A DNA stretch of 6,027 nucleotides from Promethearchaeota archaeon (GCA_027031765.1 JALVPN010000060.1:1-6027); one strand, 5' to 3'; shown: positions 3 through 6,027, counted from the first letter of the stretch. Notes: generated from the letters alone by a model not told the origin. A program made the numbers and translations.

Positions 3-833
3 GGCAGCCAGAGGGCCGCAATAGAGGACCCGTCACTGGCGGACACTTTCAGGGTCGTGCGTGATTCAGCCCCGTCCGTACCCGTGATTGCCAACATTGG
101 CGCGACGCACGTGGAGCTGGCACCGGACGCTGTAGAGATGATAGATGCTGATGTCCTTGCTGTGCACCTCAACCCTCTACAGGAGGCTGTGCAGCCGGAG
201 GGTGACTGTGACTCGGAGGGGTTCCTGGACAACATAGCAGCCATCGTTGACACGGTCGACGTCCCGGTGATAGTGAAGGAGACCGGTGCAGGGATCTCCG
301 GCGAGGTGGCCCAGATGCTCGAAGAGGTCGGTGTGGACGCTGTTGATGTCGGCGGCGTGGGTGGGACGAGCTGGGCGGCTGTGGAGTACTACCGTGCGCT
401 GCAGGAGGACGACCCGGTCAAGACCCAGCTGGGGCTGGAGTTCTGGGACTGGGGCATCCCCACGGCACTCAGCGTCATCATGGTGCTCGATGCCACCGAC
501 CTCGATGTCATTGCCACAGGTGGCATACGTACAGGCCTCGATGTGGCGAAAGCCCTCGCCCTCGGGACAGTTGCCGCTGGTGTTGCACACCCGCTGCTCC
601 GGCCTGCTGTGAATGGTACCACCGAGGACATCGTCGCGCAGCTCAACGCACTGTTGGAGTCGTTGCGCGTGGCCATGTACCTCACGGGCTGCCTGACCGT
701 CGATGACCTCGCATCGGTGCCACTTGTGATAACTGGCAGGCTTGCCCAGTGCCTCGAGTCCCTGAACCTTGATGTGAGCAGGGTGGCCCTCGGCGTGCGC
801 AAGGTGCCGGAGGTCAGCGACGAGGAGATCTGA
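3..833 (+). CDS. fni: Type 2 (FMN-dependent) isopentenyl-diphosphate delta-isomerase, 5'-truncated by the window edge
   Basis: The frame of ORF 57..833 is open back to base 3 (GSQRAAIEDPSLADTFRVVRD...), so the listed start at 57 is internal. IDI-2 motifs present: GSQR, ANIG, HLNPLQE, PEGD, PVIVKETGAG, DVGGVGGTSW, WGIPT, ATGGIRTG, AKALALG. Stop TGA at 831-833. Confidence 0.96.
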   Translation, partial: GSQRAAIEDPSLADTFRVVRDSAPSVPVIANIGATHVELAPDAVEMIDADVLAVHLNPLQEAVQPEGDCDSEGFLDNIAAIVDTVDVPVIVKETGAGISGEVAQMLEEVGVDAVDVGGVGGTSWAAVEYYRALQEDDPVKTQLGLEFWDWGIPTALSVIMVLDATDLDVIATGGIRTGLDVAKALALGTVAAGVAHPLLRPAVNGTTEDIVAQLNALLESLRVAMYLTGCLTVDDLASVPLVITGRLAQCLESLNLDVSRVALGVRKVPEVSDEEI

Positions 834-995: not shown

Positions 996-2480
996 TCAGA
1001 GGGCGCCGACACGCTGGAGGTATTCTGACCACTTGCGGATGCCATTGAGCATCTGCACGGCCTCCTCTATGGTGTCACCGCAGGGGATGCCGTTGAGCTC
1101 GAAGCCACGGATTATGACCTCGTACTTGTCGAGGTAGGGGACGTAGGCGACGACCGTCTTCTTGTGCCGTTTGGCCACGTTGGCCACGCGTGCGCCGATC
1201 TGGAGCGAGATGCCGGGTGCGTAGGGCAGCAGCAACAGGAGGGCTGCGTCTATGTAGTCGAGCGCGAGCATCTTGTCAAGGACGCGTTCGTAGTCTATGT
1301 CGGAGGCGCTACCCGTCAGGTCAATCGGGTTGCGGAACGAGGCAATCCCCTGATAGGCCGGTGTCATGACGGAACGCATGGCCTCCTGGTCCTCTTCCTT
1401 GAAGGGTGGGAACTCAAGGCCGTAGTAGGCCGCCTCGTCCGACGCGATGACACCATGGCCGCCACTGACCGTGAGCGTCCCGACACGCTTCCCCTTCATC
1501 GGGCGGGGCCCGAAAGAGAACACCTTTGAGTATGCCATCACCTCGTCCTCGTCCATTGCTTCGATCACGCCGAACTGCCTGAAGGCAGCCGAGACCACTG
1601 CACCATTTCCCGCAAGCGACGAGGTGTGACTCTGTGTGGCCCTGTGCCCTGCTTCTGACTGGCCACCCTTGAGCACCACGATTGGTTTCTTCCTTGCGAC
1701 CCGGGCACACTCCTCGACGAACCGCCTGCCCTCTCCCGGCCCGAAGCCCTCAATGTAGGCCAGGATGACACGGACGTTGTCGTCCTCGCCGAAGAACCGG
1801 ACAAAGTCGGACACCGTGGTCTGTGCCGAGTTCCCAATGGACACCGCTGCTGCAATGCCCACGTCCCTGTCCGCGAACTCTTCGAGGCGCTCAACGAGCC
1901 AGCCACCGCTCTGGGACACTATGGCCACGTTGCCGTACCTGGGCCTTGCGACCCGCTCGGACGGCAGGAAGAACGTGTCCACACGGTCCGGCACGAACAC
2001 ACCTATGCAGTTCGGCCCGACCATGGTGATATTGTACTGGTTGGCAATCTCAACGATCTCGTGCTGGAGGGAGCGTCCAGACTCGCCGGTCTCGCTGAAG
2101 CCTCCAGACACCACGATGACCGAGCGTATCTTCTTGCGCCCGCACTCCTCGAGCACTCCCGGCACGAACCTCGCCGGGATTGATATTACTGCGAGCTCAA
2201 TATCGTCGGGGGCCTCGGTTATGGACTTGTAGACCTTGACGCCCTCGACCGTACCCCCTTTCGGGTTGATGGGGTAGGTCTTGAGCCCATTCTCGAAACA
2301 CAGTTTCCTGAAGATGACGTTGCCCGGCGAAAACGGGTTCGACGTGGAAACGCCCACTACAGCTGTGACCTTTGGGTTCAGCATCGTCTTGAGACCTGCA
2401 ATCACATGACCACGCTCACGAGTGTTCAGTATGTCCGTCCGGCTGCGGCGCTGACGGGCCGCCGTGCTAGTCTGCCCCAT
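996..2480 (-). CDS. acdA: Acyl-CoA synthetase (NDP-forming) / acetate-CoA ligase alpha subunit (CoA-binding domain plus two ligase subdomains, no ATP-grasp domain)
   Basis: CoA-binding fold motifs LNPKVTAVVGVS, YPINPK, ELAVISIPA, VSGGFSE, VGPNCIG. Further family motifs VSQSGG, VSIGN, YIEG, KPIVVLKGG, phospho-His motif SHTSSLAG (H285, bases 1626-1628), TVSGGHGV, NPIDLTG. Symbol is family-level; substrate not determinable. True start may be downstream (GTG 2405 or ATG 2384). Confidence 0.9.
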   Translation of the reverse strand: MGQTSTAARQRRSRTDILNTRERGHVIAGLKTMLNPKVTAVVGVSTSNPFSPGNVIFRKLCFENGLKTYPINPKGGTVEGVKVYKSITEAPDDIELAVISIPARFVPGVLEECGRKKIRSVIVVSGGFSETGESGRSLQHEIVEIANQYNITMVGPNCIGVFVPDRVDTFFLPSERVARPRYGNVAIVSQSGGWLVERLEEFADRDVGIAAAVSIGNSAQTTVSDFVRFFGEDDNVRVILAYIEGFGPGEGRRFVEECARVARKKPIVVLKGGQSEAGHRATQSHTSSLAGNGAVVSAAFRQFGVIEAMDEDEVMAYSKVFSFGPRPMKGKRVGTLTVSGGHGVIASDEAAYYGLEFPPFKEEDQEAMRSVMTPAYQGIASFRNPIDLTGSASDIDYERVLDKMLALDYIDAALLLLLPYAPGISLQIGARVANVAKRHKKTVVAYVPYLDKYEVIIRGFELNGIPCGDTIEEAVQMLNGIRKWSEYLQRVGAL

Positions 2481-2487
2481 CGGTCTG

Positions 2488-2493
2488 ATTTAA
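2488..2493 (-). promoter_or_regulatory. Possible archaeal TATA box (TTAAAT on the minus strand) for the acyl-CoA synthetase gene
   Basis: One of the few AT-rich hexamers in a GC-rich intergenic region, directly abutted upstream by a 20-bp palindrome. It is too close to ATG 2480 for that codon to be transcribed, so it would imply a downstream start. Confidence 0.3.
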
Positions 2494-2496
2494 GCC

Positions 2497-2516
2497 TGTG
2501 GGAGATGTGTCCCACA
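2497..2516. promoter_or_regulatory. Inverted repeat TGTGGGA-N6-TCCCACA, candidate transcription-factor operator
   Basis: Perfect 7-bp arms (2497-2503 and 2510-2516) with a 6-bp spacer, located where a BRE would lie relative to the candidate TATA. Confidence 0.4.
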
Positions 2517-2635
2517 TATTGCTCGTGCTGTCCCTCGGGTGGGGCCGGGTACACATGCCACCGTGATGCCGGTGGGAGCCCCCATGTCCGGTGGCCGTTG
2601 AATGAGTGCTCCTGCGACCGTCTTGTTACCAGCGG

Positions 2636-3724
2636 CTAGGGCTTCATCTGGGCCAGGACCTCGCGCAGGCGTGGCTCCGCAAGGATGCCGAGCTGGATCT
2701 TGCAGAGCAGCTTTGCGGTCTCGGCATAGATGACCCTGCGGGTGTCATCGCTGTCGCTGCTCGCACTGTCCACGGCCTCCTCACAGCGCTGGTTGAACCG
2801 TTTTATGATGCGTTTCTCAAGGTCTGGACCCCCCCAGTCGAAGCCGTCCAGTGCGGCCTGTGCTTCGAGTATCTTCTCCTGCACGTTCACCTCGCCCCCT
2901 CTCAGGACCTCCTCCACGCCTGCAAAGTAGCTGGCCACGGCCCGTTCAATGCGGGCCTTCTCAGAGGGCAGCAGGTCCTTCTCCTGCGGGCGCTTCTGGT
3001 GGAGTTCCTGTAGGAGCCTGGCACCAGGCGCCTCCGTGAGCAGCCCTTTGATTATCCTGACTATGAAACGCGAAGGGGTCTCCACCACATCGGCAAAGTA
3101 GGGGCTCTTTGACCTGTACCGGTGGATCTCCTTGAGGACCTCGAGCCAGAAGACGGGCAGGAGGACGTGACAGCGTACCGAGTACTGTTCAATCATCCTC
3201 TGGTGCTGACCGATGAACCCCCACGCATCGTCCTCAATCTCGGCCTTCAGGTACGGCTCCTCAGGCTCTTCTGGGGCTGCCTCCACCAGTGTGAGTGGTG
3301 GCACCGTGTCCGGTGATGGTGCTGGTGTCATCCTTGAGAGCTGGGCACCCTCAGGCACGACCTCAGCAGGCGGCCGTTCTCTACCGTCGTCGAGGAGCGT
3401 GAGGATCTCCATGGTGGGTGTGCGCGCCTGTTCTGCCCGTTGGGCCCTGTAGGCAAGCTTGGGCAGGAGGCTCTCGATCTGTGAGAGGCGCTTGACGATG
3501 AGGCCCATGATGTTGGCCGTGGACTGGGAGAGCTGTCCCGGTGCGAGGGTGCTCTCAATCCACTTGCGGGTCCTCTTCAGTCCCTGTGTCAGCGAGTCCA
3601 CCCTGTCCGGGTCCACGCGCCCCTCAATCTGGGTGCTCAGCAGGAAGTGCATGAGCGTGGCGTTGAGGGTGGCAATCAGTAGCAACCTGTCCATGAGCTC
3701 TTCTTGGGAGAGCGACTCACTCAA
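2636..3724 (-). CDS. Hypothetical protein, 362 aa, predicted alpha-helical, two domains joined by a Pro/Glu-rich linker
   Basis: Long ORF with protein-like composition. TTG start at 3724 lies 5 nt downstream of a strong SD (GGGGTGATC) that overlaps the stop of the upstream gene. TAG stop at 2638-2636. No family recognised. Confidence 0.85.
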   Translation of the reverse strand: MSESLSQEELMDRLLLIATLNATLMHFLLSTQIEGRVDPDRVDSLTQGLKRTRKWIESTLAPGQLSQSTANIMGLIVKRLSQIESLLPKLAYRAQRAEQARTPTMEILTLLDDGRERPPAEVVPEGAQLSRMTPAPSPDTVPPLTLVEAAPEEPEEPYLKAEIEDDAWGFIGQHQRMIEQYSVRCHVLLPVFWLEVLKEIHRYRSKSPYFADVVETPSRFIVRIIKGLLTEAPGARLLQELHQKRPQEKDLLPSEKARIERAVASYFAGVEEVLRGGEVNVQEKILEAQAALDGFDWGGPDLEKRIIKRFNQRCEEAVDSASSDSDDTRRVIYAETAKLLCKIQLGILAEPRLREVLAQMKP

Positions 3725-3729
3725 CGGGC

Positions 3730-3738
3730 GATCACCCC
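3730..3738 (-). promoter_or_regulatory. Archaeal-type Shine-Dalgarno GGGGTGATC overlapping the stop codon of the tubulin-like gene
   Basis: The minus strand reads ...GCC ATG GGG TGA TC GCCCG TTG. GGGGTGATC matches the GGAGGTGATC consensus (complement of the 16S rRNA 3' end) with one mismatch. Confidence 0.75.
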
Positions 3739-5135
3739 ATGGCTGGTGTTCCAGTGGTGTCTGCTGGCGTCATGTAGTAGCTGAACAGTTCCCTGAAGTC
3801 CTCGATGGCACTCACGAGCTCCTTTCGTGTCGTCCCCTTTGCACGCATGAACCAGCCCTGTTTGAGTGGTGATGCCCCACTGTGCAGGTTCACAAGCTGG
3901 GTCGCCTCGTTGATTATCTGGGCGAGTTCGGGTATCTTGGGCAGCCCGAGCAGGAGGAGCAGGTTTGTGGGTGCCTCCGAGTAATGGTACTGGACGTAAC
4001 AGGGCGTGATGGCAGCGCCGGGTGCGACGAACTTCTCCAGGGCCTCCTTGAGGTGCATGCCGTACTCGGCCTTTGCGATGTGCCTCGGCCCACTGAGGAC
4101 GTAGTACACACTCTCCGCATTGGGCTGTTCGCCGACATCCGCATATGAACACTGTTTGACCGCATAGTCGATCATTGCACGCAGCTGCTGCGGCATGCTG
4201 CCGGCGTCGGGTATCAGGCCCACATCGGTGTACAGTGCGGGGACCACCACCGGGTCGAGTTTGTGCGAGTAGTCTGCGAGGTCTGTGGTCGGGAACACGT
4301 CCTTGCCACTCTCGTACACGCCGGGCGAGAGCATTGCCTCCACCACGTCCAGGGCCATCGGGTTGACCAGTTCCACAAAGGCCTGTTCCGTCCTCTTCTC
4401 AAGGTCGCCCGCCTCGTCCAGTGTTGAGGGCACCATCCTCTCGATGGAGGCGATGTCCGCAATGTCCACGTCGAGCTCCCGCTGGAGGTAGTCCACACTC
4501 TCACTGGTCCGGCTCCGGAGGATCCGTTTCAGCATTGTCCTGTTGCTCAGCAGGATTGTCAGGTTGGCCCCACGGTCCTGGAGCTGGGCCCTCATGAGCT
4601 TTGAGACCGCCCAGATTGAGTTGAGGGCCTCACTGGACTGTCCCTCGAAGGGCAGGACCCCTATGACGTAGACGAATATCCTGCGGCCCTCCTCCTCCTG
4701 GAACCGCTGTTTGAGGAGCTCTATGAGTGCCGGCGTGCCACCGCAGCCGGTACCACCACCGAGGCTCGTGAAGATGCAGAACCCCGAGACCCCTTCGAAC
4801 CCGAGGCCGGCGAGCTGGTCGAATATGATGTCCTTGGCCTCGTGCACTGCCCTGTAGCCGTCCATGAACCGGCCGCCCACACCGATGTCGCTGTCACCGT
4901 AGAGCAGCGTGTTTTCTTTGGGGATCTCGTACTTCTGGCGCACTTTCATGAGGTCGGCCCGGTCAGTGTTCATGAGCAGGTAGCCCCTGACGCGGGACGG
5001 CAGCCTCTTGTCGGCACTTGTCTTGAGGTACGAGCCTACAATATTGGACCCGCACTCTCCGATACCAATTGCAAACACTTCTGCAGCCTTTGCAGAGTCG
5101 TCGTCAGAACCTCTCGGCATCCTTTGCACCTTCAT
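3732..5135 (-). CDS. Divergent tubulin/FtsZ-superfamily GTPase (467 aa)
   Basis: Signature loop SLGGGTGCG (aa 124-132), T1 GIGECGSNI (24-32), T2 MNTD (55-58), T3 GVGG (85-88), T5 VLPFEG (160-165), T6 ILLSN (194-198), T7 TTDLAD (283-288), all in the correct order. Start may be ATG 5135 or ATG 5120; both have an upstream GAGGT/AAGGTG-like SD. The subfamily cannot be assigned by eye. Confidence 0.93.
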   Translation of the reverse strand: MKVQRMPRGSDDDSAKAAEVFAIGIGECGSNIVGSYLKTSADKRLPSRVRGYLLMNTDRADLMKVRQKYEIPKENTLLYGDSDIGVGGRFMDGYRAVHEAKDIIFDQLAGLGFEGVSGFCIFTSLGGGTGCGGTPALIELLKQRFQEEEGRRIFVYVIGVLPFEGQSSEALNSIWAVSKLMRAQLQDRGANLTILLSNRTMLKRILRSRTSESVDYLQRELDVDIADIASIERMVPSTLDEAGDLEKRTEQAFVELVNPMALDVVEAMLSPGVYESGKDVFPTTDLADYSHKLDPVVVPALYTDVGLIPDAGSMPQQLRAMIDYAVKQCSYADVGEQPNAESVYYVLSGPRHIAKAEYGMHLKEALEKFVAPGAAITPCYVQYHYSEAPTNLLLLLGLPKIPELAQIINEATQLVNLHSGASPLKQGWFMRAKGTTRKELVSAIEDFRELFSYYMTPADTTGTPAMG

Positions 5136-5529
5136 CCAACCTCTCTTTGTCGCTCCGATCTGTCACGTCAATACAGCAGGTGGTCGCAGGCCCGCTGCCA
5201 CGAGTCCCGTGCAGCCCTGTCCGGAGGCCATGCGTTAGTCCTCAGCCAACGTCTTGGGTGACCAGACGCCTATTATTTCTGCCGTGCATGTACCCGCTAC
5301 TGTCCAGTGCCGTGAGTGTGCGGCCCCGGGTGTCCCCCAGTGGTGGCAGCACAGTCCCTGCAGCTTCGCGGCCAAGTGCAGTACTACCGCCCTGACGGGC
5401 CGGCTGACGGTGGCCTACTTGGTGGGCCCTGTCACCAGTGGTACCTGGCAGCCCCGGTGTGGACATCCCTGTCCACCTGGCCACCGCAGGCACCCGCAGT
5501 GCCCGTTTGCTCACAGTCCCAAATAAACT

Positions 5530-5580
5530 GTATCGTGACCGCCCGCAGCCGCGTAGCCCGTGCACTTGGCGTCACGGTAC
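5530..5580 (+). other. Potential stem-loop in the large intergenic region
   Basis: GTATCGTGAC (5530-5539) can pair with GTCACGGTAC (5571-5580): 10 bp with one G-U pair. Extendable inward by GCC/GGC and GCA/TGC. Confidence 0.3.
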
Positions 5581-5648
5581 GCCCAGTCGACGGTGAGCAC
5601 ACCAATCCTCTACAGACATTTCCCGAGACGTCCCAGTCGCGTCCTGTC

Positions 5649-6026
5649 CTACCCGCGCTTCTCGACCATGCGGCGCGCGAGTTCTCGCACTGCCCATGTC
5701 AGGTACGAGCTGATGTCCTCTCTCCCATAGGTGTCCCGGATGCGCTTTGCCGTGTCTTCGAGGAACCGTTCCCGCTCGTCGGCGCTGGCCGTGGGACTGA
5801 ACTCGGTCATGAACATACGGAGAGACTTGTGCCAGTCGTCCATCTTCTCGGCCTTGGTCAGCCACTTGGTGCGCATGTCCATGATCTCGTTGAAGAGCTC
5901 GATGGCCTTGTCGAGGACAGTGGCCTGTCTGAGAGCCTCCTCCTTCTCGCGGAGGGTCCTCAATGGGAATATGAGGCGTGAGAAGTCGTCCGGGTGCCTG
6001 TCGTAGACGGCCTCGATTGTGGAGTA
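5649..6026 (-). CDS. Hypothetical alpha-helical protein, C-terminal 125 aa only (5'-truncated by the window edge)
   Basis: The frame of ORF 5649..5963 stays open to the window end (YSTIEAVYDRHPDDFSRLIFPLRTLREKEEALRQ...RRMVEKRG*). Charged amphipathic helical pattern; codon style matches the neighbouring genes. Confidence 0.8.
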   Translation of the reverse strand, partial: YSTIEAVYDRHPDDFSRLIFPLRTLREKEEALRQATVLDKAIELFNEIMDMRTKWLTKAEKMDDWHKSLRMFMTEFSPTASADERERFLEDTAKRIRDTYGREDISSYLTWAVRELARRMVEKRG

Positions 6027-6027
6027 G

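Follow-up and report, generated by a model that had tools for sequence, protein, structure and literature searches.

The window analysed here, a 6,027-nucleotide (nt) stretch of DNA from a Promethearchaeota archaeon (GCA_027031765.1 JALVPN010000060.1:1-6027), carries on its minus strand a gene for a tubulin-superfamily GTPase and, immediately downstream, a second gene whose product we refer to as the partner. The question raised by this locus is what the partner is and what role, if any, it plays alongside the GTPase. An initial annotation made from the sequence alone saw in it a dedicated accessory factor of the GTPase and drew an analogy with ZipA, the FtsZ tether of Gammaproteobacteria. Our answer is that the partner seems likely, on balance, to be a small accessory subunit or adaptor of an Asgard module that combines a large helical protein with a CetZ-like GTPase of the 'Asg.Tub' group.

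The partner gene occupies positions 2636-3724 (minus strand) as a 362-amino-acid (aa) open reading frame (ORF), with a TTG start at 3722-3724 and a TAG termination codon at 2636-2638. The GTPase gene lies at 3732-5135 (minus strand) and encodes 467 aa with a match to PF00091 (E = 1.3e-18). Read on the minus strand the junction is GCC ATG GGG TGA TCGCCCG TTG, in which exactly 7 nt (3725-3731) lie between the GTPase termination codon (TGA, 3732-3734) and the partner TTG, the same distance as first annotated. A Shine-Dalgarno motif, GGGGTGATC (3730-3738, minus strand), overlaps the GTPase termination codon, and its 3' end is 5 nt from the TTG. The 16S rRNA of the host genome, confirmed as an archaeal small subunit rRNA, ends in ...GGATCACCTCC, to which the motif is complementary over nine consecutive positions if one G.U pair is counted; the earlier observation of a Shine-Dalgarno sequence embedded in the stop codon is borne out. 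In favour of the TTG start, the N-termini of homologues, which open with M-S/T-E, align at this position. There are 194 homologues at E <= 0.001, with 56-66% identity among the matches listed, and those that are named come from Asgard archaea only; judged by these homologues, the partner gene is a real gene.

With a weak TTG start 7 nt past the GTPase stop and a Shine-Dalgarno motif spanning that stop, translational coupling of the partner to the GTPase is probable in the window genome. Similar junctions are common elsewhere. The stop-to-start distance falls between -8 and +27 nt in 19 of the 21 GTPase-partner loci surveyed across eight families, Shine-Dalgarno-like motifs are usual at these junctions, and in some lineages the partner start overlaps the GTPase stop by 4 or 8 nt (-4, -8). 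The operon with coupled translation that the initial annotation read from the junction is retained as probable, given the 7-nt gap, the motif, and the short or overlapping junctions at these 19 loci. Among sequencing runs searched for RNA over positions 2500-6027, none was listed as holding any. TTG and GTG are the predominant partner starts among the surveyed Thorarchaeota loci, and such non-ATG starts suggest that translation of the partner is set below the level of the GTPase by design.

The two genes also occur together across Asgard genomes. When 400 such genomes are searched with a partner profile and a GTPase profile (the latter at E <= 1e-40), the partner is matched in 123 and the GTPase in 124, with E values for the partner ranging from 1e-26 to 1e-116. 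The agreement holds family by family: partner and GTPase are found in 73 and 74 of 85 genomes respectively in family f1, in 16 and 15 of 19 in f14, and in equal numbers in f11 (20 of 22), f30 (5 of 5) and f6 (4 of 4). Families without the partner are also without the GTPase and vice versa, including one with 0 of 135 genomes and one with 0 of 31. On these near-identical tallies, presence and absence of the two genes agree almost completely in the 400 genomes. By its profile matches the partner family belongs to Thorarchaeota and to several other Asgard archaeal lineages.

Gene order is conserved along with gene content. About 113 of the 123 genomes, with coordinates read by eye, have the partner in the same orientation as the GTPase and directly downstream of it, and in nearly all of the others a contig end interrupts the pair. 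There are two real exceptions, one a genome with five genes (8.2 kb) between GTPase and partner and the other a genome with a 376-nt gap. The first is a Thorarchaeota locus (L010, G387:C69:9000-23000) with the GTPase at 2257-3642 and an intact partner at 11858-12922; in two relatives of the same genus the GTPase and partner profile matches stand about 180 and 400 nt apart, with 376 nt as the stop-to-start distance measured. The neighbourhood conservation and co-occurrence that had been proposed as a check on the pair are thus both found. The partner looks dedicated to the GTPase because presence and absence match, the genes adjoin and the junction is short, and to this extent the dedicated accessory factor of the initial annotation is supported.

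The two proteins share much of their history. Pairwise identities of GTPase and partner correlate with r = 0.93, a value confounded by phylogeny, and their trees agree in the major clades. Within Thorarchaeota the mean identity is 83% for the GTPase versus 60% for the partner, and between families it is 55% versus 27%; on these values the partner diverges faster than the GTPase. In a few genomes (G333:C17, G318:C11 and G106:C52) one of the two genes, partner or GTPase, is broken across two neighbouring frames or interrupted by an in-frame stop. Assembly errors or occasional decay of the module could account for this.

A third gene belongs to the locus. Upstream of the GTPase the window contains the 3' end of a gene for a large helical protein (5649-6027, minus strand), the first gene of the module, whose full ORF spans 5649-8357 on the contig and encodes up to 902 aa. 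Most GTPase-partner loci also carry a helical protein of 740-1300 aa upstream, with the product of complete genes varying by lineage between 874 and 1311 aa. The GTPase of a Heimdall-type genome and that of one further Asgard family are each preceded by a protein without Pfam match (1169 or 874 aa) and followed by another (341 or 336 aa). The downstream proteins match the window partner with E = 3e-44 (full length) and E = 9e-19 (C-terminal 200 residues), and the upstream proteins match the large ORF of the window, one with 29% identity over 851 aligned columns (E = 1e-122) and the other with E = 1e-23. Another lineage has the same trio with a partner of 602 aa, and in one lineage the GTPase and partner adjoin while the large protein is 3 kb downstream. 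As the pair stays adjacent where the large protein moves, GTPase and partner form the most stable core of the module. Judged by this gene order, the normal unit is usually one of three genes encoding the large helical protein, the GTPase and the partner, and the two-gene system first proposed is right about the pairing of GTPase and partner and falls short by the large gene upstream. The large protein belongs to no Pfam family and has weak coiled-coil-type matches only, such as SHE3 (E = 8e-4, below cut-off).

A more complex arrangement is seen in some f11 genomes, which contain a second module with a 1141-aa large helical protein and a 444-aa GTPase paralogue (2560-5985 and 5997-7331 in locus L009, G072:C10:7000-20000). 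Here a convergent gene follows the GTPase paralogue and there is no adjoining partner gene. The single f11 partner elsewhere may serve both modules, or the GTPase paralogue may work without one.

The GTPase itself can be placed in a published group. The solved structures closest to it are those of CetZ (4b46, 3zid and 4b45), which match in the N-terminal domain only (E = 1e-9 to 1e-10). It is 81-87% identical to its homologues in Thorarchaeota (full-length matches) and 49-63% identical to those in Heimdall-, Hod- and Hermod-type genomes. Thorarchaeota metagenome-assembled genomes hold the nearest homologues of GTPase and partner alike. It is the third tubulin-family gene of its host genome, the other two being canonical FtsZ. 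Santana-Molina, del Saz-Navarro and Devos 2023 (PMC9871819) named a CetZ-like group of Asgardarchaeota 'Asg.Tub' and described its genomic context as unknown genes, most with coiled-coil regions; the neighbour genes are neither named nor characterised there, and no conserved partner family is given. The window GTPase resembles Asg.Tub in being divergent, CetZ-like and restricted to Asgard archaea, and on these features it is provisionally assigned to the group. The coiled-coil neighbours described for Asg.Tub match the two helical neighbours of the window GTPase. What the present comparison adds is that the downstream gene is one conserved family with strict GTPase co-occurrence and a bundle-linker-domain layout. 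The 'CetZ-related Asgard archaeal clade' that serves as outgroup in bioRxiv 10.64898/2026.02.15.705738 is apparently Asg.Tub as well. In the full-text literature the name 'Asg.Tub' is found in the 2023 paper only, and no description of the partner family was found in the literature. The partner is an undescribed family in a module whose central GTPase is named but unstudied, and the earlier statement that the pair matches no described system applies to the partner and not to the GTPase, the family of which is named in print (PMC9871819).

The partner protein is organised in three parts. The N-terminal domain (aa 1-100; 3425-3724, minus strand) is predicted to be a three-helix bundle, the first helix of which contains the uncharged stretch LLLIATLNATLMHFLLSTQI (aa 14-33). 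It is followed by a disordered linker rich in proline, glutamate and threonine (aa 101-157; 3254-3424, minus strand), variable in length and sequence among homologues, and by a compact, all-alpha C-terminal domain (aa 158-362; 2639-3253, minus strand) that is common to the whole family. AlphaFold2 predicts helices at residues 7-34, 39-59 and 67-100 of the full-length protein with a predicted local distance difference test (pLDDT) of about 70, places residues 102-150 below 50, consistent with disorder, and models the remainder, from about 158 to 362, as a helical domain. When this domain (residues 158-362) is modelled separately on a diverse alignment, the result is a compact unit of ten helices with a pLDDT of 97.2 and a predicted template modelling (TM) score of 0.92. 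The layout described in the initial annotation is recovered in each of its parts: the uncharged stretch of 20 residues, the region of roughly 100 aa with about three helices, the 11 prolines counted in aa 118-157, and the helical C-terminal domain of roughly 200 aa, here 205 aa and all-alpha in the model.

These parts are conserved to different degrees. In family alignments the linker columns are gapped and unconserved, and the proline-rich linker is limited to Thorarchaeota, with other lineages differing in its length and composition. Within Thorarchaeota, the first helix region has invariant L10, R13, L15, T19, L20, N21, T23, L24, H26 and F27. The C-terminal domain has ten residues that are invariant when scored across lineages about 18-30% identical to the window partner, namely D166, Y181, H186, E231-A232-P233, G298, E303, R305 and K361. 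The family is rare: an exhaustive search with the partner profile matches only 48 clusters out of 1.84 billion representatives, and the distant members match the C-terminal part of the profile only. No GTPase-partner fusion is present in this representative search, which was run without a length filter and yielded matches of 107-602 aa and one repetitive protein of 1212 aa.

Searches for relatives outside the family are negative at the level of both sequence and fold. Pfam and NCBIfam give no match to the partner, and Pfam gives none for 31 family members even at E <= 1. PDB sequences searched with the partner and two family profiles, one of them for the N-terminal domain, yield nothing significant. 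With the full-length model, the best Foldseek match in the PDB has E = 0.35, the atlas fold search gives TM <= 0.29, and VIA wide returns generic matches to the N-terminal bundle only. With the C-terminal domain alone, the best Foldseek match has E = 0.49, so that the structural check suggested for the predicted domains points to no known unrelated family; the atlas fold search gives TM <= 0.49, the ESM Atlas feature search gives no usable match, and VIA wide reaches a best Z of 6.0, below the background of the tool; nine chains reach Z 5 or more, but none reaches 8. The C-terminal domain is without a detectable sequence or structural relative in the searches run, although a weak or absent fold match is no proof of a new fold.

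The N-terminal bundle does resemble known structures, but in a generic way. In VIA wide it matches the Not5 N-terminus and spectrin repeats with Z of about 10, including a utrophin spectrin repeat with Z 9.9 and a root mean square deviation of 2.4 A over 100 aligned residues. MIT domains, spectrin repeats and the Not5 N-terminal domain are all antiparallel three-helix bundles similar in size to partner aa 1-100; this likeness reflects a common helix arrangement, lies below the chance level given by the tool for helical bundles (Z of about 13), has no accompanying sequence match and is no evidence of family membership. The MIT likeness noted in the initial annotation appears to go no further than the three-helix bundle and its size, with spartin MIT at Z 7.9 and rank 50, behind unrelated three-helix bundles at about 10. 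In sequence the N-terminal domain does not match the MIT profile (PF04212), with no Pfam match and nothing significant for the N-terminal profile in PDB sequences. Homology of the bundle to the repeats of the large helical protein was rejected (hhalign probability 0.2%).

A plausible scenario for the accessory adaptor is that the 205-aa all-alpha C-terminal domain would contact the GTPase or its filament; we favour this domain for the contact because it is the sole part conserved across all lineages and carries the invariant polar residues. The N-terminal bundle, held on a flexible linker of about 50 residues, would then probably serve as a second attachment, through either self-association or binding of the large helical protein, and the partner would work as a flexible cross-link or adaptor. 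Because non-ATG starts are common and the partner diverges faster, it may be present in lower amounts than the polymer, in a regulatory or adaptor role rather than as a co-polymerising subunit. The complex prediction for full-length GTPase and partner, run with two alignments, gave scores of 0.00 and 0.24 against a mark of 0.32, and is used neither for nor against the adaptor.

Several observations weigh against this adaptor, or limit how far it can be taken. Adjacency and co-inheritance point to a functional link and not to direct binding, and binding of the partner to the GTPase is putative. An active site is as good a reading of the invariant D, Y, H, E, E, R and K as a binding surface. Tight coupling between the two genes is not obligatory, as the 8.2-kb and 376-nt exceptions illustrate, and translational coupling is therefore dispensable. 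The GTPase can also exist without an adjacent partner, as the f11 paralogue does.

The alternative that survives best, though we think it improbable, is that the partner is a regulator of the GTPase or an enzyme acting on it, such as a chaperone of assembly, a factor that inhibits or promotes polymerisation, or an enzyme that modifies it, and not a structural linker. D166, Y181, H186, E231, E303, R305 and K361 would then form an active or regulatory site, and the polar or charged character of the invariant residues, with their spread over a compact and confidently modelled domain, fits this possibility. The non-ATG starts, suggesting low abundance relative to the GTPase, and the f11 GTPase paralogue, suggesting that the polymer needs no stoichiometric partner, fit it as well. 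However, the partner has no likeness in sequence or fold to an enzyme or a known regulator family, and a bundle-linker-domain layout is commoner in adaptors.

A membrane tether like ZipA, with the N-terminal hydrophobic helix in the membrane, the proline-rich linker as a spacer and the C-terminal domain holding the GTPase filament, is less probable still. The order of parts is alike in the two proteins, with a hydrophobic helix, a flexible proline-rich linker and a C-terminal globular domain, and both are partners of a tubulin-superfamily GTPase. In the partner an uncharged 20-residue helix near the N-terminus precedes a disordered linker, after which comes a globular domain, and the linker is flexible as in ZipA (residues 102-150 disordered, 11 prolines), although this is an analogy and the proline-richness is not kept in other lineages. 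The helix is where the comparison falters. The usual transmembrane cut-off for Kyte-Doolittle hydropathy over 19 residues (KD19) is about 1.6; the window partner reaches a maximum of 1.42, and its summed Hessa-type insertion energy is +4.2 kcal/mol (a simple sum). The N-terminal helix is more hydrophobic in some Heimdall-type members (KD19 of 1.7-2.35), one of which comes close to 0 in summed insertion energy, but 30 of 31 family members are above +3 on the same sum and several lineages are without any hydrophobic N-terminal segment. Inside the helix T19, N21, T23 and H26 are invariant in Thorarchaeota, which is unusual for a simple anchor, and an asparagine recurs at the same place in most lineages. 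The helix has acidic flanks on both sides, and AlphaFold2 packs it with two others as a three-helix bundle.

The C-terminal domain differs from ZipA as well. The FtsZ-binding domain of ZipA is alpha/beta, whereas that of the partner is all-alpha, and there is no sequence similarity between the proteins. A ZipA_C domain (PF04354) was considered for the partner and rejected, with no Pfam match at E <= 1 in the partner and 30 relatives and a ten-helix, all-alpha model. None of the results on the first helix is decisive alone, and combined they make a ZipA-type anchor unlikely. The ZipA-like anchor of the initial annotation is not upheld in the face of a sub-threshold helix, invariant polar residues, bundle packing and an all-alpha C-terminal domain, and its word 'anchor' was an interpretation and not an observation. 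A peripheral, amphipathic contact of the first helix with the membrane may nevertheless occur.

That the partner is functionally unrelated to the GTPase and merely co-transcribed is very improbable: the interaction of GTPase and partner is putative and the two genes are 8.2 kb apart in one genome, but presence and absence agree across more than 30 Asgard families, and even in lineages whose partner shares no more than about 20-28% identity with that of the window the gene order is kept, with other neighbours differing.

Among the other features of the window, which is the start of a 16.7-kb contig in a genome of 2.95 Mb that is 95% complete, we note the spacer between the large helical protein gene and the GTPase (5136-5648, minus strand). 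This is 513 nt long, GC-rich and specific to the window genome, as compared to gaps of 11-104 nt between the same two genes elsewhere. None of 85 genomes from the family of the host genome matches the spacer, which has no Rfam match, no repeats and a folding z-score of -0.03 and may contain a separate promoter for the GTPase-partner pair. The flanks at 3-833 (plus strand) and 996-2480 (minus strand) are housekeeping genes and are not conserved beside the module in other lineages. They encode a type-2 isopentenyl-diphosphate isomerase (TIGR02151, 288 bits, above cut-off) and an ADP-forming acetate-CoA ligase (acetyl-CoA synthetase) alpha-type protein, the latter called from a TIGR02717 match with E = 7e-116 that is below the equivalog cut-off.

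The accessory adaptor can be compared with dedicated accessory proteins of other tubulin-like systems, of which TubR and TubY with TubZ, BtubC with BtubA/B and SepF with archaeal FtsZ are examples. These systems and the module in the window share the organisation of a small operon, in which a tubulin-superfamily polymer is accompanied by lineage-specific partners that adapt the filament to cargo, membrane or scaffold. The window partner is not homologous to TubR, TubY, BtubC or SepF, with no Pfam or NCBIfam match and no DNA-binding or TPR features, and the module differs from the TubZ, BtubA/B and SepF-FtsZ systems in having a second, very large helical partner. A bolder form of the adaptor, which is conceivable but to which we give somewhat less than even chances, is that the partner founds a new family, with an unseen all-alpha C-terminal fold, and acts as a filament adaptor, an archaeal counterpart of microtubule-associated proteins that would join a giant helical rod protein to polymers of an Asgard-specific tubulin relative in a three-component cytoskeleton without counterpart in studied model archaea.

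The Asgard homologues of actin and of true tubulin are being actively studied; the Asg.Tub branch has so far only been named in a phylogeny. With the tempting analogy to ZipA set aside as unsupported, the comparisons define constructs for experiment, namely the GTPase, the 205-aa C-terminal domain and the N-terminal bundle. If the GTPase forms filaments, then the GTPase, its constant partner and the giant helical protein would constitute a third tubulin-superfamily system of Asgard archaea, beside FtsZ1/2 and AtubA/B.

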